A DNA stretch of 62,081 nt, filler included, from Globobulimina sp. (taxonomy: Eukaryota): the NCBI GenBank assembly GCA_003354225.1. It is 20 parts of 20 records of this genome, joined end to end, with 100 filler letters (N's around TTAATTAATTAA, not from the genome) between each part and the next. Parts side by side here need not be neighbours in the genome. Positions count along the whole stretch, not along the records: positions 52,860 to 55,867 come from PIVH01004046.1; 19 more parts are not named here. The stretch is one strand, 5' to 3'. Shown here piece by piece: positions 3,114 through 56,086 of the stretch (positions are counted from its first letter, which is position 1; every line of letters begins with the position of its first letter). Under the pieces are notes generated by a model. It worked only from the letters and a program-made list of their open reading frames with translations. It was not told the DNA's origin and made no database searches. Position numbers and translations under genes: made by a program.

Positions 3114-4502
3114 AATGGTGAACATAACACACCAGATCTCACTGACAGATTTATTATTGGTGCTGGAAATACATATAATATTCATGAAACCGGTGGGAAT
3201 TTCTATGTTGAATTAACAATAAACGAATTACCTTCACATACACATAAACTACAAAATGACTCAATTATTATTGAAGAAACTGACGACGAACATTATCATC
3301 AAATATTTGCTGAAGACATTACAATCTCATTTGACACCGGCCATTCACACCAGATATCAACAAACAATGTATCACTGTCTGGTGAACATTCACATTCATC
3401 CAATTACAACCTATCCAATGCCGGCGATCATATTCATAAAGTTGTGAAACTCGAGAAACGTTATTTTAATTTCAATCCAACCACTACGCCAACACATAAT
3501 TCATCCATTGCACCCACATCAAATCCAAGCATTGCACCAACAATTCTACCAAATGTGGAAATATCTGCATCAAACACAGCCAACCCAACCACAGATATCA
3601 ACACCGCTGATTATTCAATAGATTTCGAACTGGAAACACTTTCGATTAGCAATGGATTATCGATTGACTCCGTATCTAATCACGTCAGTTCATGCAGTTT
3701 GTCAATGAATGCAGCAGGGAATCACCAGCACGTTACAATAAACCTGGGAGGCGTTGGTGTATCAGATGTGCAGGGCCAACATGCGCACAGTGTCGGTGGC
3801 ACTTGTAATGGCGGCGCACATTCACATGGAATTAGTGGTAACTCGGATTTGGAGCTAAGTGATGTTTATACGACACAGAAAGGAGCGCATTTGCATGCTA
3901 TTGAGGGGAAATCGAGTGTTGATGGGATGCACTCGCACGAATTGTATGCTGTTTCAGATAGGAATGACGGACATAATCATATTGTTTACGGTCAAACTGA
4001 TTATGGTTCAGATAACCATACACATGAAGTTATATTTGGTGAGACAGAATTTGTTGGCGATAATCAGAAAATTAATATTGTAAATCCGTATTATTCATTG
4101 GCATATATTATAAAAACATCGAATGTTAGATATAGTTTTGAGAATTCTGCAGCTGACACAATGTTATCAAAAGAGAATGATTCAGTTAGTAATGCAGCCG
4201 TTGTCTTATCTGTACTCGCTGTGATAGCTGTAATTATATTGTGTGTGGTGTTGGTTTTAATGCACAAATCATATAAAAATGAGAACGCTGTGAATGAGTT
4301 TGGCGAACAACATAATATTGAAAATGAGAAGAAGTATAAAAAAGTTGAAAATATTGAGTTAGAAGCAATTAATACATGTGATATTGGTGAAGTTATTGAG
4401 AGAATTGATGATAATGTGATTGATAACATTGAAAATAATGTGGAAAATGATGGAATTGACACCGGTGATATTCAAAATATAATAAACTATTTGCATAATT
4501 GA
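3114..4502 (+). CDS. Phage tail-collar/HxH-needle-like protein with C-terminal TM anchor, 5' partial
   Basis: Frame is open from the contig start: NGEHNTPDLTDRFIIGAG..GG..ELTINELPSHTH, 12 HxH motifs, INIVNPYYSLAYIIK, TM helix AAVVLSVLAVIAVIILCVVLVLM, acidic tail. Confidence 0.8.
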   Translation, partial: NGEHNTPDLTDRFIIGAGNTYNIHETGGNFYVELTINELPSHTHKLQNDSIIIEETDDEHYHQIFAEDITISFDTGHSHQISTNNVSLSGEHSHSSNYNLSNAGDHIHKVVKLEKRYFNFNPTTTPTHNSSIAPTSNPSIAPTILPNVEISASNTANPTTDINTADYSIDFELETLSISNGLSIDSVSNHVSSCSLSMNAAGNHQHVTINLGGVGVSDVQGQHAHSVGGTCNGGAHSHGISGNSDLELSDVYTTQKGAHLHAIEGKSSVDGMHSHELYAVSDRNDGHNHIVYGQTDYGSDNHTHEVIFGETEFVGDNQKINIVNPYYSLAYIIKTSNVRYSFENSAADTMLSKENDSVSNAAVVLSVLAVIAVIILCVVLVLMHKSYKNENAVNEFGEQHNIENEKKYKKVENIELEAINTCDIGEVIERIDDNVIDNIENNVENDGIDTGDIQNIINYLHN

Positions 4503-46643: not shown

Positions 46644-48459
46644 AACGCTCTTTGTAGGCAAACAAAATCTGTATACAATTTTAATGAGATAACATGGTTT
46701 ATCGTGATTGCACTTCCGACGGCAATATTAAATTTCTCATTGTTTATGCCTATATCTTGAGCCTTATAAAATATTATAAAAATGAAGATAAACATTAAAG
46801 TGACATGATTGGAAATGTTTTTTAGTTGGTTTTTCTGTAGTTTTTCTTACATTTTACTATCATGGCATGCAACTGTAAATAAACAGAGGAACAAACCTTA
46901 TGTTTCCAGCCATGACGTTGCATCAATTTGCTACATTCTTTATACAACCAATAATAATTTTTCTTTGATATTTGCCGTATTTTATTCTTTAATAATTCCT
47001 GTTTTAATGTACAATACTTTGCAGTAACACTATCTGGATATCCATCCTCCCAGAAATTTAAATATTCACCAAAATTAAAATCTGTTGAATATAGTTTCTG
47101 TTCCTCATTATTCGGATTCATACTAAAATCATGCATATATTTATCATTTGAACCATTGTCTTTTAATTTACATTCAGTACTTTCATGAACACTGTTTTTA
47201 ATAAAATCAATATGTGTCAACCAGGCATGCCTTAAATTATTACTCTCTAATCGACAAACTATAGAATCACTACCAACCAAAATAAACATAAACCCATCGC
47301 ATGCACTATTATTAATACATTTTATTTCTCGAAATCTTCGTAATTCAATTACTTTTAGCTCAGAATGCGTAAATCTAATTTTATTCAAATACTCAGATCC
47401 ACCAACCGTTGGTATATCAGCATCACTAAATTTTCCTTCATTCTCATCCAACTGAAATAATTCACACAAACTTGAAATTTTATTTTGATTCAATAATATA
47501 TTCAATTTTATTTGTTTCTTAGTATGCCCACGTATCGAACTCCTAATTTTCATTAAATCCTCGTTATTGTCATTTATATTTAAATTCTTTGCTAATTTTT
47601 CTGCAATTTTGTCATCAATCTGTTTATATTCATTTCTATTTTCTTGATTGATTAGCTCATCAATTTTTGATTTGCTTTTAAATTCCAACCAAATATCATA
47701 ATTTCCCGGCGATGTTAAATACAAATCGTTTTTGGTCATAATAGCTGCATAATCAATGAATGCTTGTTTAGATTTCGAATAAATACCAATCAAAGAATCA
47801 AATATAATCTCTATATTCTCTTCTTTTAATACAGTCATTAATTGTGATTCTAAAATGATTTTTAATCTATAAAACGGATCATTATTTTTGTCAGAAACGT
47901 TTTCAAATAAATCATATGTTCTGTCACTGTCAAGTGTTGTTGTGGCTGTTCGCGTATATTCAATTCGAACATCCTCCAAATTATTCATATTTATATCATT
48001 TTTATCCTTTGTAGAATCAGTAAAATCAATTAAATGTTTTGGAGATTGATAGTTTGATTGGAATTCATTCGCAGATCGTTCAGGTTGGGATATGTTTAAT
48101 GGAGAGATGGATTGTTTGCTATTTATTCGTCTTTGTTGAGGTAACATGTTATATTTATTGGCAGTAATCACTGATTGTAAATGTTGAACCCATGTTATCA
48201 TTTCTACGCTATCGCTTGCCGCAAATACTCGTTTTTTCTTTGTTTTGCCATTACTTGCTATCAATTCAAATCGATTTTGAATTTTACTAATTCTAATTAC
48301 AGTAAACTTGCGTAAATTGATTTTTTCTGTGATTTTACTATTTTCATAACATATGAGGTTTGATCCATTCAATACAACCCAACGTTTGCGTAATTTTTTG
48401 AGATATAATGACTGTTTATAAAGATACCCTTGTTTTATATAAAAATCTTTAGACGTCAT
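46644..48459 (-). CDS. PH-domain protein (two PH-like domains), 3' partial with intron at about 46764-46897
   Basis: KQGYLYKQS..RKRWVVL..FAASDSVEMITWVQHL; a second PH-like end RHAWLTHI; the frame resumes at AQDIGINNEK after the intron. Confidence 0.75.
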
Positions 48460-49751
48460 TTTTGCATTTCGTTGTTAGATAAAAAGTGCTGACATGCCAC
48501 AGTTGTGAAAAACAGCATATTTTGAGCATCTACTTTGAAGTTACTAGCAATGCGTTTTTAGTACTTTTTACGACGAAAATGGAAATATCAAATATTATGC
48601 TATGGATCGATTACCAATGAATATTTACACACTTTAATCATATTTTCGCGGTTCTTGACAAGAAATTTCATTATTTATTACCTTTTCCATTTCTGTACAT
48701 CTGACAATATTTTGAGATGTAATCAAATATGTTTTCCCCATTGTATATATGTAATAATAATAAAAGCATGGATATCGCATGCAATAGTTACAAATCCAAT
48801 ACCAATATGTATAGATTCTCTGCATAAATATGGCTTGAATATGGGTTTGCTTTAAATAATAAAACATATCAACAAACAAAGTCAGTTAAAGTGTCAATAA
48901 GAATTAATGCCATAATGTATTGATATTTTTCTTTAAATTAACTGAATGTTCCATTACGAATTTCTACCATAAATACACGGAATTTTAATCAAAATAATTC
49001 AATTCCTATTCATTGCAGATTTGTAATGCATCCATTGTAATGTGTATTTTATTCTTCAAATCATTAGAACATAATATATAATCTGACACTGTATACATAC
49101 TTTCAATGCATAAATCATTATATTTCTTGTCAAGTCGCGCGAGATTCGGTGGATTCAGGTCCTAGGCGATGGAGAACTGATTTCTAACGTTCGTTTGACA
49201 AAGATTGGTTTAACAGACTTTTATGTCAATGCTGGCATGGTCTTTGGTCTCTGTTTTGTTTCATCTGACAATATATTGTATTGGAAGCGATCATTGGATG
49301 CAATTTCTAACTTTGTCAAATCGAAGAATTGAGGAAGGAAAACAAGTTAAAAATATAATGTTAAAAGAGTCGGTTTCTTAGTGAACTCATTGGTTTCTTA
49401 GTGAACATTTTTAAGGTTTTTTATGTAATGTTAAAAACGAAAACCGTAATTAATCGTTCCGGATTTCAAAAAAAACATACTCGCACCCAGAATAAACTAA
49501 TATACAGATAATTAACATTTCATATTTCATCATGCTTCAAAAAAATGTTTTTAACATTATTAATAAAATGTTATCTTTTAACATTTTATTTATAACCTAT
49601 TTTCCTTCCAGAATTGAAGTCTTTCCTTTTAGATCCTATCTGATTGATACANNNNNNNNNNNNNNNNNNNNNNNNNNNNNNNNNNNNNNNNNNNNTTAAT
49701 TAATTAANNNNNNNNNNNNNNNNNNNNNNNNNNNNNNNNNNNNNNNNNNNN

Positions 49752-50587: not shown

Positions 50588-51814
50588 TCAACTGAAAAAA
50601 ATAGCACAGTCTCTTTTGGAGCGATATGTAGTTATCTGCTTTGCATCTACTTGATGCGGCTTACAATATCGATCATTGCACAAAAACCAGTGTTGATTCC
50701 ATTTAGTTAATGTCCAATAATGACTACCTCCAAACTGCATCTTTGCTGATAGCGAATAACGTTGAATAGCACCATCATAACCTTTTTTTAAATCATAATA
50801 TCCGACATCAATACCACTCATATTTTTTCCCAGAGTCACACAAACTACACTCGGCACAGATTCACCAGCAATTAACCGTTCACTTAAATGCACCAATCCG
50901 TTATCTACAATGACACTGTACTTCACTGCATTTCTCAGCATGGTAATACCGTCAAAATGCCCAGTTAACATTTGAATTGAGTCTTGAGTAGAAAACCTTT
51001 GCTGTCCACAAAAATCAATTAACAATAAAGCATAATATTTAAAAGTATCTGAATTGATAATCTGACTATAATCCTTATTCAGATACGTTTTCATAATTTC
51101 TACAAACATATCCACATCGGTATCTGACCCATATTGTGTATGAGAATAATCAGAAACCTTCCTAACTAATCCTTGTTGAGCCACCAAACATTGTAATAAT
51201 GCATTCATATAACATGTATTCCCGGCATTTGCTATTCCCATTGGACTCCGTCTTAATGTCATGTTTCTATTGTGTGGGAATACAAATACTCTTAGTTTTC
51301 TACCTGGATTATCAAATAAAAAATGAATTTTCAAATGTGTGGCTGTGTATTCATGGACATTTTTCAATGGCATTGATGTCTGTTTTTGTTTATTATCATG
51401 CTGTCCTTCAATAAGCAAAGTAAAGTCGTCTGTTAGTTGATGAGTATTTGATGCGAAGACTACACAAAATAATGTAGCTCCATCTCCGTGGTTTGTACAT
51501 ACTGAACCATTAATTTGTATGGTGGTTAATAAGACATCCTGTTTGTCGATGATTTTAATTTGCGATAATGTGCATTTCTCATTCCATCCAATGGTAAACA
51601 CATCATTAAAGTGTGATATTCCAAAGGGCTCTGTATGGAATCCTGTATTTGCGGAGATAACTAGAATGATAACGATTACAATACACAATACAAATAATAG
51701 CAAAATACAAATTGATTCGTCGTCCCAACTGCAGAAATTCCTTTTGGTTTTGACAGCGTTAGTATCTGTTTGATGATTATATGCGGAATCATGCATCTCA
51801 TAAATGTTCTGCAT
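50588..51814 (-). CDS. USP-like (peptidase C19) protein with N-terminal TM helix
   Basis: Cys box GIANAGNTCYMNALLQCL, QD box, His box GGSHYWT..WFLCND, TM ICILLLFVLCIVIVIILVI. Confidence 0.8.
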   Translation of the reverse strand: MQNIYEMHDSAYNHQTDTNAVKTKRNFCSWDDESICILLLFVLCIVIVIILVISANTGFHTEPFGISHFNDVFTIGWNEKCTLSQIKIIDKQDVLLTTIQINGSVCTNHGDGATLFCVVFASNTHQLTDDFTLLIEGQHDNKQKQTSMPLKNVHEYTATHLKIHFLFDNPGRKLRVFVFPHNRNMTLRRSPMGIANAGNTCYMNALLQCLVAQQGLVRKVSDYSHTQYGSDTDVDMFVEIMKTYLNKDYSQIINSDTFKYYALLLIDFCGQQRFSTQDSIQMLTGHFDGITMLRNAVKYSVIVDNGLVHLSERLIAGESVPSVVCVTLGKNMSGIDVGYYDLKKGYDGAIQRYSLSAKMQFGGSHYWTLTKWNQHWFLCNDRYCKPHQVDAKQITTYRSKRDCAIFFS

Positions 51815-51994
51815 GCGAAAGAAGAAAAGCTAAATGTTTTACCAGGTGATTCACAGCATGAGAATAAGCGTAATCATGTCATGCAGCTGCGTGATTTATA
51901 TTTGTTTTTTTTGAATATGCGATATATTATGTCATAGTTCCTGCAAAAAAAAACTGTGCTTCTGGGTTTTTTCATTTGACAAATAATTATAAAT

Positions 51995-52759
51995 ATGGCT
52001 CAACAAGCTTCAAACGTGAGTTATGTGACAGATCAAAAGATGTGGTGTTGGCAATCCAGCGACGGGTTTAAACCATATGAACAAAGTGTAGCATCAGAAA
52101 TTGACAGATTAAAAATTGGAGAATCTTACACGATGACTCACGGCCATACAAAATATATTATTATCAAAATTTCAAACATTTTTGCCAGACAAATTAACCC
52201 AAAAACTAATTTTCGCAGAGATGTAGTTCTGAAATCAATCAACAACACAACAAATAACAATATGCAAAGTGATGGTTGGTACTGGCAACGTAGTAACGGT
52301 GATTATGCAGCCTTTGATAATTCTAATTCTTCACAAATTGATAAATTACAAATTGGTCAAGTTTACAGCATCAAAGTTAATAATATCAAATATGACATTA
52401 AGAAATTGTCACACAACAAATGCGAGCAAACTAATGTCCAAAATGGCTATAAAAGAGAAGTTATATATCAATCAACAGCGTATAAATGGTTTTGGAGAAA
52501 TTCTCAAAATGAATATAAACCGTATTCAGATAAAACGTCACAGAAAATAGAGATATTAAAAATAAATGAGACGTTTTCGTTTTCTGTGAATAATTCGCAA
52601 TATGAGATTATAAAAAAAACAAATGATAAATGTCAACAAAAAAACATTGACAATAATTATTCGCGGCCTGTTATTCGTAAAATTATCGCTGACAAGAAAC
52701 AAAATGTTGACAATGACGATGTTGACCTGAAAGATAACACTGATACAAAGGAAGAGATC
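51995..52759 (+). CDS. Tandem WWE-domain protein (three copies), 3' partial
   Basis: Three repeats of WxW...Y..QxN..xRxV. Confidence 0.75.
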
Positions 52760-52861
52760 NNNNNNNNNNNNNNNNNNNNNNNNNNNNNNNNNNNNNNNNN
52801 NNNTTAATTAATTAANNNNNNNNNNNNNNNNNNNNNNNNNNNNNNNNNNNNNNNNNNNNTA

Positions 52862-55006
52862 CGTAAATTATATCTCTTTCTTAGATCCTTGTCTAGAAAA
52901 AATTTACTACTTATAAATGAAGCCATTAAAACTGGTAATGCAGATTATTGGCATACTGATGCTAAATTAGCTACACTTGCATATATGGCTGGATATTATA
53001 AAACTAAAACTAAAATTAAAGATAAAAATAAAGGAATTATAATTGTTGCTACATACCCCAATAAGGGTATTGAATTACTTAAATTGGAAACAATTTACAG
53101 GGACAGACGATTACAAAAAGCATTAACTATCAATAATAAAAAGCAAGAATTACCAATTATTACATATAAATATGAACCTCCAGTTAGTTGTAAATTATTT
53201 AATTACAATAAAACACTCAAACAGTTACAAAATAATACACTACAAAATATCATACAAGGCAATTGTAATTGTAATAATTCAAGTTATGTATATGGTCATT
53301 GTGGGCACATAATGACTGGTAATCTTGACATTATCAAAGATGAAAAACTTAAAGAACTCTTTCGGAAAGGAGCTAAGTTTCGAGAACCTAAAGCATTCAA
53401 CTGGATAGAAGTGAAAGAAGCTGCTATGGAATTGGTTGATCAATATTTCAACAAAATATTCAAAAGGATAAAAGCTTACGTGGATATAACACATATTACT
53501 GACAAGTACAGAAGACTCTACACGAACATTGTTGACAACAGAATTAAGTTTCTGTCAATGCATATTAGTAATACAGAGAAGAAATCATGTTTACTACAGA
53601 AGAAATGTCTAACGGAACTGAACCGGTTGCAGTTGGAATATGTCATTGCTCCAGCAGATAAAGCCAGCAATAATTTTATATTCATTTGCAAAAAATATTA
53701 TATTGAGGTTATGTGTAAAGAACTTGGTGTTAGTAGTTTTACCAATGGTACTTGTATTGCTGTGGGTAATAAAGTTTATAGGCCCTGTAGTATAACAGAA
53801 AGTTATCTTATAGCTAAACATAAAGAGCTCACCTTACATACAGGAAGCATAACATTTGCAAAGGATGACGAATGTTTACCAGTTATATTTGCTACACCAA
53901 AATTACATAAAAATCCATATAAATTTCGATTCATTGCTGGTGCTAGTAATTCATCAACTAAACCAGTTTCAATTATATTGCATAGAATTTTGTCACATTT
54001 TCAGCAGCATTTTGAAAAATATTGCAATACAGTTAGCAAAAGAAAAGGTTTCAACTGCTACTGGTCAATCAAAGGCAGTTTAGAAGCACACAGGCGACTA
54101 GAACATAAAATACAAGCTAATAAATTACATACTATAGTTACAGCGGATTTCAGTGCATTGTATACAATGTTTCCACATGACATTATAAAACAGCAACTGT
54201 TTAAACTTATTGATATGTTATTTGGGCATGCAAACAAAAGATTCATAGTAGTTAGTTATAAGAATGTATATTATGCAGACCAGGTAACCAGCAAAAGTTT
54301 AGCAATATTGGATATAAATGAAACAAAAGGCTTAATTAACAATGTAATAGATGAGACATATGTAAAGTTTGCTGGCCTTATATTCAAGCAAATATGTGGT
54401 GTACCTATGGGAGGAAATGCTAGTCCACTAATTGCAGATCTGGTATTAAGTATGATGGAATATAATTTCCTCACTGATAATGACAATAAAATTATAGCAA
54501 AAACAATGACTGACACTATTAGATATATAGATGACATTTTATCTATTAACTGTGAAAAATTCTTAGAATATGCTGAACTTATATACCCCAGTTGTTTAAC
54601 ACTAGAAAACACAACTAAGTCAAAATATGACAGTTGTTTTCTAGATTTAATGATTAGCCTGAGTCCTGGGAAACACAGAATTGCAGTATATAATAAGACA
54701 GATGATTTCAATTTCCATGTTGTTAGATATGGTTTTGCTTGTAGTAATGTACATACATCTACAGGTTATAAAGTGTTTTACACTCAATTAATTAGATTTG
54801 CACGAATTTGTAATAATTTTGATGATTTTGCTCCTAGAATTGGGCAGTTAATACATACATTACTTACTAATGGATATAATAAACCTAATCTGTATCATAC
54901 ATTTTACAAGTTTGCTTCGATATATAGTACTTTATTATTAAAATTCAAACTTGACAATAAAGAGAAAATAGCAAAATTTTTCATTTCTCAAATAGAACAA
55001 TTTTAA
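52862..55006 (+). CDS. Penelope-like reverse transcriptase, 5' partial
   Basis: CNC..GHIMTG, KGAKFREP, PADKASNN, PKLHKNP..RFI, ADFSALYT, GVPMGGNASP, RYIDD, FLDL, QLIRFARIC; frame is open from the contig start. Confidence 0.93.
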   Translation, partial: RKLYLFLRSLSRKNLLLINEAIKTGNADYWHTDAKLATLAYMAGYYKTKTKIKDKNKGIIIVATYPNKGIELLKLETIYRDRRLQKALTINNKKQELPIITYKYEPPVSCKLFNYNKTLKQLQNNTLQNIIQGNCNCNNSSYVYGHCGHIMTGNLDIIKDEKLKELFRKGAKFREPKAFNWIEVKEAAMELVDQYFNKIFKRIKAYVDITHITDKYRRLYTNIVDNRIKFLSMHISNTEKKSCLLQKKCLTELNRLQLEYVIAPADKASNNFIFICKKYYIEVMCKELGVSSFTNGTCIAVGNKVYRPCSITESYLIAKHKELTLHTGSITFAKDDECLPVIFATPKLHKNPYKFRFIAGASNSSTKPVSIILHRILSHFQQHFEKYCNTVSKRKGFNCYWSIKGSLEAHRRLEHKIQANKLHTIVTADFSALYTMFPHDIIKQQLFKLIDMLFGHANKRFIVVSYKNVYYADQVTSKSLAILDINETKGLINNVIDETYVKFAGLIFKQICGVPMGGNASPLIADLVLSMMEYNFLTDNDNKIIAKTMTDTIRYIDDILSINCEKFLEYAELIYPSCLTLENTTKSKYDSCFLDLMISLSPGKHRIAVYNKTDDFNFHVVRYGFACSNVHTSTGYKVFYTQLIRFARICNNFDDFAPRIGQLIHTLLTNGYNKPNLYHTFYKFASIYSTLLLKFKLDNKEKIAKFFISQIEQF

Positions 55007-55010
55007 CACA

Positions 55011-55100
55011 TTACCGGCTTATGTCGGTGGATTATTACTAGCTTTGCTAGTGGATTATTACTAGCTTTTGCTAGTGGATTATACTAGCTTTTGCTAGTGG
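55011..55100 (+). repeat. Four tandem hairpin units of about 23-24 nt directly after the RT stop
   Basis: TTACCGGCTTATGTCGGTGGATTA, TTACTAGCTTTGCTAGTGGATTA, TTACTAGCTTTTGCTAGTGGATTA, TACTAGCTTTTGCTAGTGG. Confidence 0.85.
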
Positions 55101-55640
55101 TTTATATGTAATTTAAACTAAAATAATTTAATAATCAAATTAATTAAAATTTGTAGTAAAGCTAATATAAAGCACACATTAAACATTTATTTATTTTCAC
55201 ACTTCTATTTGCTCTACATTTACAGTAATCAACTTTAGCACACAGTTGTTTATGGCACAGGATCATGATATCTTTTCAATGGGACAGGGCCCTAACTGAA
55301 CTTTATTGTGACATAACTGAAATGTCCTGTTACAGTAACCTAGTAATGTGCCATTACGAGTTTGCATAAAAGTGGGCATAGAATGGAAAAATGTTTTTCA
55401 TTTATTAATTAAAAATTAATTTATAATAATTTGGTTTTGTGATAATCTACAATGAGTGCCTCCCAGAAGAGACCAAGAGGCGAGTATTCAGATGGAGAAG
55501 AAGAGGTAACTACAAATATTGAGGTTGTTAAATTCATATTTTATATTAATCAATTTTTACTGGTTTTTTGTCCATCCTCCCCCTAACTGAGAGTAGAATT
55601 TTATTAAAAAATTTTTTTTTATACTTTTTGCTGAGTGATT

Positions 55641-55740
55641 CGCCTAGCAGCTTTCTACTGAAGAGCTGTCCTCTGCTAGTGCGTTATTGAATTGGGTCTA
55701 GAAATTAAAGGACCGAAACCTAATTCAAATAGGTTATAGA
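55641..55740 (+). ncRNA. Candidate hammerhead ribozyme with non-canonical strand order
   Basis: CTGAAGA 55658-55664, GAAA 55715-55718, GTC 55696-55698. Stem I TTTCTA/TAGAAA; stem II G-C plus GTCCT/AGGAC; stem III A-CCTAATTCAA/TTGAATTGGG-T. Confidence 0.6.
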
Positions 55741-56086
55741 CAATTTTTCAGATTTTATTGAGCTAGGGTAAAACTTTATTAATGTTTCTCAACTTTATCT
55801 TACTATTTGTTTTAACAATACGTTTTTTATTATTAAGCTAATTATTTAAGAACTGTCACTAACGTTCNNNNNNNNNNNNNNNNNNNNNNNNNNNNNNNNN
55901 NNNNNNNNNNNTTAATTAATTAANNNNNNNNNNNNNNNNNNNNNNNNNNNNNNNNNNNNNNNNNNNNGGGAGGAGTGGAATGAGTACTTTTAATTAATCC
56001 ACGCTCCTTGCATGCAATTCACTAAGTGCTTTTCGAAGTTTTAAGTATTAGTACTTAGAAAAAAGTTAGTTAGCACTAGTCAATTG

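Follow-up and report, generated by a model that had tools for sequence, protein, structure and literature searches.

The 3′ untranslated region of a Naiad-type Penelope-like element (PLE) in the assembly of Globobulimina sp. (GCA_003354225.1, record PIVH01004046.1) most likely contains a hammerhead ribozyme of type CSG, located at 55641–55728 of the analyzed DNA. This DNA, hereafter the window (positions 1–62081), consists of 20 separate pieces of 3007–3011 bp each, sorted by length and with GC contents of 0.29–0.48, which are joined by spacers of 44 N, TTAATTAATTAA, and another 44 N. The motif was found in piece 18 (52860–55867; GC content 0.30), whose 3008 bases are its only true context. 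Type CSG belongs to the non-circular hammerhead permutations described by Eckert, Friedrich, Weinberg and Weinberg (Nucleic Acids Res 2023, PMC10085705), who designated the conserved blocks as C (CUGAnGA), S (cleavage site), and G (GAAA). In the descriptors used here, the same blocks are labeled A (CUGANGA), C (cleavage site), and B (GAAA), and the CSG order corresponds to A-C-B.

A hammerhead core in non-cyclic strand order

All elements of the motif lie on the + strand. The 5′ strand of stem I, UUUCUA (positions 2.6–2.1; 55652–55657), identified by base-by-base reading and by the descriptor, is followed by the core nucleotides C3–A9, CUGAAGA (55658–55664), and by the 5′ strand of stem II, which comprises G10.1 (55665), a CU bulge (55666–55667), and GUCCU (55668–55672). 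The site block starts with the 5′ strand of stem III, UUGAAUUGGG (55687–55696), continues with U16.1 and C17 (55697–55698), which form a GUC triplet together with G55696, and ends with the 3′ strand of stem I, UAGAAA (positions 1.1–1.6; 55699–55704). A UUAA linker (55705–55708) connects the far end of stem I straight to the far end of stem II, whose 3′ strand, AGGAC plus C11.1 (55709–55714), precedes the core nucleotides G12, A13, A14, and A15.1, GAAA (55715–55718), and the 3′ strand of stem III, CCUAAUUCAA (55719–55728). Stem I consists of six Watson-Crick pairs; stem II of G55665-C55714, the 2-nucleotide (nt) bulge, and five further pairs; and stem III of 10 pairs, one of them G-U (G55694-U55721), extended by the A15.1-U16.1 pair (U55697-A55718). 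C3–A9 is thus placed between stems I and II and GAAA between stems II and III, and the NUH triplet is followed by stem I, as in the catalytic core of a hammerhead. The predicted cut is between C55698 and U55699, by analogy with the published experiments on type CSG (PMC10085705).

An additional helix, designated IV, ties stems I and II together at their far ends and closes the loop displaying the CUGAAGA block. It is formed by 55641–55650 and CUGCUAG-U-GCG at 55673–55683, and contains 10 pairs and one bulged U (U55680). The nested minimum-free-energy fold of 55636–55733 (−25.4 kcal/mol) consists of exactly hairpins IV and III, with open loops; compared with shuffled sequences its z-score is −2.0, and 8 of 200 shuffles fold equally well. 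The two hairpins are separated by 3 nt in piece 18 and by 1–12 nt in relatives. Immediately downstream of the motif, the stretch UAGGUUAUAGACAA (55730–55743) resembles the true site block when the two are compared base by base, but relatives do not conserve it; it is probably a decayed duplicate outside the working fold.

The initial annotation of this DNA had proposed a split hammerhead with the strands at 55652–55672, 55687–55704, and 55709–55728, and all of its core nucleotides, coordinates, and pairings were verified base by base in the sequence. Its statement that the order is non-cyclic and lies outside types I–III also stands. The topology itself is not new, since it is already known as type CSG from PMC10085705; its Naiad home appears to be new with respect to the accessible literature.

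The search for hammerheads was performed with a descriptor allowing any of the six strand orders and requiring stems of at least 4/3/3 pairs and at least 14 pairs in total. On both strands of the 62 kb window it returned a single match, the motif site, with 22 stem pairs. In 100 dinucleotide-shuffled windows, 0.09 matches per window were found at ≥14 pairs and 0.02 at ≥18; none reached 22 pairs, the maximum total being 20. With Rfam models, neither the window nor the 20 related loci tested that bear the motif gave a match at the gathering score, which agrees with the earlier expectation that the motif would escape standard models. At E ≤ 10, only an unrelated snoRNA model matched the region 55300–55870 (E = 8), and this match was regarded as chance. 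The absence of an Rfam match and the non-cyclic strand order place the motif outside the classical types I, II, and III.

Recurrence in Naiad-type elements

Upstream of the motif, piece 18 carries a 5′-truncated open reading frame (ORF) of 714 codons plus stop (52862–55006, + strand), which includes a CxC linker, a DKA motif, and a reverse transcriptase (RT) domain. The ORF is open from the start of the contig, from which the N-terminal GIY-YIG part is missing. The RVT_1 match is weak (E = 2e-4), and no endonuclease follows the RT. The translation contains C-N-C and A-D-K-A, both invariant or nearly so among 32 aligned relatives. According to Craig, Yushenova, Rodriguez and Arkhipova (Mol Biol Evol 2021, PMC8557442), the CxC linker motif and the change of DKG to DKA are diagnostic of Naiads, which are distinguished from Chlamys by the animal host and the CCHH motif in the endonuclease. 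A protein-collection search with the ORF yielded 281 relatives with up to 41% identity, most of them about 850–1060 aa long and many with PF01541; GIY-YIG was N-terminal to RVT_1 in all four scanned relatives (36%–41% identity). Pearl oyster was the only named eukaryotic source among the relatives listed. Judged by its sequence, the element is a Naiad-type PLE. The initial assignment to the Naiad/Chlamys type is thereby upheld by the CxC and DKA motifs and the Naiad-type relatives, while the N-terminal endonuclease is suggested by the relatives, the corresponding region being absent from the contig.

The objects for comparison were 97 Naiad loci (labeled L001, etc.), retrieved via the alignment of the 32 protein relatives. 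Seventeen originated from prokaryote genome bins and presumably represent mis-binned eukaryotic DNA, and 80 were metagenomic (the best 80 of 436 confirmed matches). Together with piece 18 they comprised about 340 kb, scanned on both strands. The strict descriptor gave five matches, all on the ORF strand: A-C-B in piece 18, L002, L019, and L021, and B-A-C in L003. No A-C-B matches were obtained in 20 shuffled sets, where other orders appeared at 0.1–0.65 per set. A relaxed A-C-B descriptor, which permitted an insert after A9, gave seven matches on the + strand (L001, L002, L003, L019, L021, L065, and L090) and none on the − strand, against a background of 0.16 per shuffled set (50 sets). Piece 18 itself was missed by this descriptor because of the bulge in stem II. 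Reading of each CUGANGA downstream of the ORF added L018 with a clean motif and L073 and L083 with an insert; in addition, L078 has the insert form cut by the contig end, and L020 and L022 are irregular. The CSG order is therefore present in 11 loci (piece 18 and 10 others), always on the sense strand and 3′ of the ORF stop codon; seven of them have an uninterrupted CUGANGA block and four an insert. A search of Naiad 3′ regions for the A-C-B order had been proposed in the initial annotation, and the 10 further loci among the 97 that it produced have unlike stem sequences. Chance resemblance can be excluded given the results with shuffled sequences, the sense-strand bias, and the position downstream of the ORF.

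Canonical strand orders did not give any match reaching 14 stem pairs in the 97 loci and piece 18. The B-A-C match in L003 was rejected as such, being at chance level for this order (0.5 per shuffled set), and was re-read as a CSG motif with an insert. A very relaxed descriptor, with one core mismatch and the stem II strand allowed anywhere, was noisy, with matches in 10 minus-strand loci, and only L070 was kept from it, as tentative.

Several features not demanded by the descriptors recur in these loci. The GUC triplet is present in all 11 CSG rows. A position-by-position parse was made for 25 rows of both architectures, the CSG order and the split form described below, with L070 left out; it was used instead of MAFFT alignments (six CSG motifs; twelve split-form motifs), which misplaced stems owing to variable spacers. 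G10.1-C11.1 was found in 25 of 25 rows and C15.2-G16.2 in 22. The linker joining the 3′ strands of stems I and II is 1–6 nt long in all rows, and a clamping helix of 6–14 bp at the far ends of these stems is likewise present in all 25. In 22 rows its length was reached by no more than 24 of 1000 flank shuffles, the exceptions being piece 18, L019, and L021. The types of pairs vary between the 25 loci at every stem position, the pairing itself being demanded by the descriptors.

A covariance model built from piece 18 alone (helices IV and III) ranked next L065 (E = 0.007), L002 (E = 0.056), and L001 (E = 0.071), at the coordinates given by the descriptor, with L019 at E = 2.1; its alignments misplace GUC, GAAA, or helix IV in L001 and L002. 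In a FastTree phylogeny of 84 RT rows, piece 18 falls inside a 14-row clade (support 99) that comprises seven clean CSG motifs, one CSG motif with an insert, two irregular motifs, and four rows without a motif. Three of the latter have 0–64 nt of 3′ flank. The fourth, L031, is the sister of L019; its 764-nt 3′ flank contains no motif and has no similarity to the 3′ untranslated region of L019. Some of the relatives are organized as tandem units, of about 5273 bp in L002, 5007 bp in L003, and 4022 bp in L065, and the repeated end in L003 stops about 95 nt past the predicted cut site.

Other copies of the element were also visible in the one sequencing run that contains piece 18 (share of words 0.85), which probably represents the source sample; no RNA run was among those listed for this stretch, and two other runs gave no matching sequence. 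Several other contigs of the run are alike (≥80%) only over 55688–55746 and then continue with unlike sequence, and the summed contig depth rises from 7.9 to 30–56 over the site-GAAA hairpin (55680–55746). This hairpin is common to other element copies in the sample, and no other part of the 3′ region is as widely shared there. One loose-end consensus just upstream of the shared part has CUGAUGA and then GGUCC, a strand that could pair with GGACC in a regular stem II. The CU bulge of piece 18 is thus not general among the copies of the sample.

Insert-bearing and split forms

Four CSG loci carry an insert of 23–30 nt between A9 and G10.1 (L003:4947–4976, L090:3233–3257, L073:3035–3057, and L083). 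The insert folds into two small hairpins, and the sequences of these hairpins vary among the loci. Thirteen other loci (L025, L029, L030, L032, L033, L040, L041, L044, L046, L048, L049, L067, and L093) contain on the + strand a split form, where the stem II strand starting from G10.1 is located 68–94 nt upstream of CUGANGA and unrelated sequence follows CUGANGA (e.g., L030:4368–4443). The order of its parts is the stem II strand, the 5′ strand of a helix P, the site block, a 2–5 nt linker, the GAAA block, the 3′ strand of helix P, the stem I strand, and CUGANGA. Helix P, 8–12 bp long and not demanded by the descriptor, encloses the site-GAAA hairpin. The background for the split form was 0.23 per shuffled set (30 sets); L032 and L033 are near-identical and should be counted as one. 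In its block order, the split form equals a CSG form that has been circularly permuted between A9 and G10.1, the same point that accepts the inserts.

Naiads have been reported to be devoid of canonical hammerheads, and some of them to contain a catalytic core that did not fit the descriptors, designated "HHR_core" or "HHR_half_core" (PMC8557442). In eight Naiad cases, CUGANGA was noted in the 3′ untranslated region with GAAA 35–50 nt away "on either side" (PMC8557442). In our data, GAAA is located 40–57 nt downstream of CUGANGA in the seven contiguous-block CSG loci and 19–33 nt upstream of it in the split form. We infer that the cases of PMC8557442, which share CUGANGA and a distant GAAA and were treated there as unfitted core fragments, are the motifs found here. 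Tentatively, permuted hammerheads could be the usual type in a large portion of the Naiad clade, a proposal that we regard as possible; the hammerhead would then be shared by nearly all PLE lineages rather than missing from Naiads. With its insert-bearing and split forms, the Naiad set exceeds the six block orders examined in the 2023 work. If these forms cleave, the core tolerates a break at A9/G10.1, and the CUGAnGA block could be divisible, contrary to the 2023 assumption.

Some loci carry more than one motif or part of a motif. The minus strand of L090 has a split-form motif at about 4063–4134 (+ coordinates), downstream of the sense-strand CSG motif, and the locus contains an 82-nt inverted repeat. 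This motif may belong to an inverted second PLE copy; such copies are common in PLE insertions. L093:2678–2767 contains two CUGANGA cores 83 nt apart, the second of which fits the split form. The RT proteins of L030 and L032 are very close (tree distance about 0.1), but in stem II both partners have been replaced in four of the six pairs with pairing kept, which reflects either unusually fast compensated change or segment exchange. In L020 (about 3440–3500), as at 55730–55743 of the window, the true site block is followed by a degenerate second copy; in L020 an 8-nt stretch with the GUC site and the stem I strand is present twice, about 45 nt apart. Such second copies may be a trace of local duplication, a possible origin of permuted orders.

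Mechanism, alternatives, and relation to known hammerheads

The two published sequences of type CSG are similar to each other, come from metagenome DNA only, show modest covariation, and were presented without a host or function (PMC10085705). Both RNAs cut in vitro at the expected site, with 5′ products of 48–49 nt and a 3′ product of 29 nt; the rates of CSG-1 and CSG-2 were measured, and the methods include a protocol for cis kinetics (PMC10085705). An extra helix brings stems I and II together, and the biological relevance of the type was graded as weaker-supported than that of type SGC (PMC10085705). Six block orders were considered in that work, with the CUGAnGA block assumed to be uninterrupted and inserts of one or two nt at most. 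Piece 18 shares with type CSG the C-S-G order, the full core, stems I–III, the short linker between stems I and II with an extra helix opposite, and the origin from metagenomic DNA, and its predicted 3′ product of about 30 nt is close to the published 29 nt. The differences are that two similar sequences were known there, whereas the present set comprises 11 loci whose stems are unlike, each in a Naiad 3′ region, and that the CU bulge in stem II is a feature of piece 18; the likeness to CSG-1 and CSG-2 was judged by their description. Type SGC (the HRIMA-1 motif, PMC10085705) is also a pseudoknotted non-circular order with GAAA soon after the site and a helix clamping stems I and II, but its CUGAnGA block comes last rather than first, and it was derived from metatranscriptomes, apparently from circular RNA agents, not from retroelement DNA.

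Among canonical PLEs, type I minimal hammerheads are known in Penelope/Poseidon, Neptune, Nematis, Athena, and Hydra (Cervera and de la Pena 2014, cited in PMC8557442). They have the same catalytic core and are likewise located near the 3′ end or in the pseudo-long terminal repeat of tandem PLE copies. In contrast to the pseudoknotted Naiad form with its lack of Rfam matches, they have the nested order CUGAnGA-GAAA-site and fit standard descriptors. In the main text of PMC10085705, Penelope occurs only within the title of one cited reference, and in the literature searched (subscription journals being outside its scope) no link of type CSG or other permuted types to PLEs was found. The number and diversity of CSG examples and their insert-bearing and split relatives were likewise not found in print within this literature.

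The sense transcript would fold into two adjacent hairpins. The 22-nt loop of hairpin IV would display the stem I strand, CUGAAGA, and the stem II strand, while the loop of hairpin III would display the GUC site, the other stem I strand, the UUAA linker, the other stem II strand, and GAAA. Docking of the loops via stem I (6 bp) and stem II (1 + 5 bp) would create an ordinary hammerhead three-way core, in which helix IV on one side and the 4-nt linker on the other hold the distal ends of stems I and II together, replacing the classical loop-loop tertiary contact. The 2′-OH of C55698 could then attack its 3′ phosphate, and the cut between C55698 and U55699 would leave a 2′,3′-cyclic phosphate and a 5′-OH. 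Since Naiad copies are often arranged head to tail, a single cut in each unit could shorten read-through transcripts to one unit or eliminate the RNA downstream. For hammerheads in other PLEs, this function has likewise been suggested but not demonstrated. Self-cleavage is published for type-CSG RNAs; for the piece 18 copy it is presumed, as is the biological role outlined here.

A number of observations weigh against this assignment or against its functional part. The published rates of type CSG are slow, with kobs of 0.004 and 0.026 per min (PMC10085705). The stem pairing of the related matches is partly ascertained, since the descriptors required the stems; independent support is provided by the enrichment over shuffles and the minus strand and by the features outside the descriptor. 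The uninterrupted helix IV of piece 18 has 7 bp, a length reached by 171 of 1000 shuffles, and attains 10 bp only across the bulged U. The CU bulge adjoins G10.1-C11.1 in stem II and occurs in none of the other 10 CSG loci; given this bulge, the piece 18 copy may be slow or dead. L018, L021, L073, and L083 were not retrieved by the piece 18 covariance model at E ≤ 10. A core motif is missing from many Naiad loci whose 3′ flanks are long, so not every Naiad has one; in particular, the clades of L045, L050, L053, L054, L034, L023, L082, and others have neither a CUGANGA nor a GAAA core motif in 1–4.7 kb of 3′ flank, and either truly lack a hammerhead or have a form outside the descriptors used. 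With regard to the biological role, hammerhead mutations in a Poseidon PLE left in vitro insertion unaffected (PMC11167929).

The family motif could be real while the piece 18 copy is catalytically dead or very slow, a decaying relic of a particular insertion. The bulge beside G10.1-C11.1, unique among the 11 CSG loci, would agree with this, as would the regular GGUCC strand after CUGAUGA in other contigs of the sample and the degenerate second site-like stretch after the motif. However, the upstream ORF is open over 714 codons, so this copy is not old, and the core nucleotides and the GUC triplet are all intact, as are stem I with its 6 bp and stem III with its 11 pairs. Moreover, relatives tolerate irregularities at the same corner, namely one extra U in L001 and L065 and the inserts of 23–30 nt in four loci, and we consider a relic to be unlikely. 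Assembly of the core between molecules or neighboring tandem units, with the CUGAAGA hairpin of one docking on the site-GAAA hairpin of another, is considerably less probable. The halves are indeed separate hairpins, their sequence does not forbid docking in trans, and the relatives are tandem. PLE hammerheads reportedly act as dimers, going by the title of a 2017 study by Lunse et al. On the other hand, the gap of only 3 nt between the hairpins (1–12 nt in relatives) favors docking in cis, and PMC10085705 contains cis cleavage kinetics and rates for CSG-1 and CSG-2. The published in vitro cleavage and cis protocol lessen the doubt about folding in cis, raised in the initial annotation, for the type as such, though not for the piece 18 copy.

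The same annotation had also suggested a type-I-like fold on the second site-like strand (55730–55743), which would place a long insert in loop II. Such a structure can be drawn (a CCUA/UAGG fold, then UUA and UAGA), but it requires one additional nucleotide at the cleavage position as well as a stem I that is interrupted, and no related locus has a type-I-order match even at ≥12 total pairs. This suggestion is not supported, and the probability that either this fold or mere chance accounts for the motif is negligible, the latter being contradicted by the shuffles and by the location of all matches on the sense strand downstream of the ORF. A type-CSG hammerhead in the Naiad 3′ untranslated region is retained as the preferred explanation.

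The absence of canonical hammerheads from Naiad and Chlamys elements has been used in arguments on the evolution of PLEs and on the need of hammerheads for proliferation (PMC8557442). Here two literatures meet, one on type CSG without a host (PMC10085705) and the other on Naiads without canonical hammerheads (PMC8557442). Should the CSG motifs be the Naiad hammerheads, a home and a large, diverse set of examples would be gained for the permuted type, the claim that Naiads lack hammerheads would need qualifying, and the annotation of retroelements would need pseudoknot-aware descriptors. The insert-bearing and split forms would widen what counts as a hammerhead.

In the rest of the window, ORFs apparently running across a spacer (e.g., 51980–52807 into 52808) are artefacts of the joining of pieces. 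At least part of the assembly is eukaryotic, as eukaryote-type ORFs were found in other pieces at 46822–48474 (− strand), 50588–51829 (− strand), and 51980–52759 (+ strand), with PH, ubiquitin hydrolase (UCH), and WWE domains.

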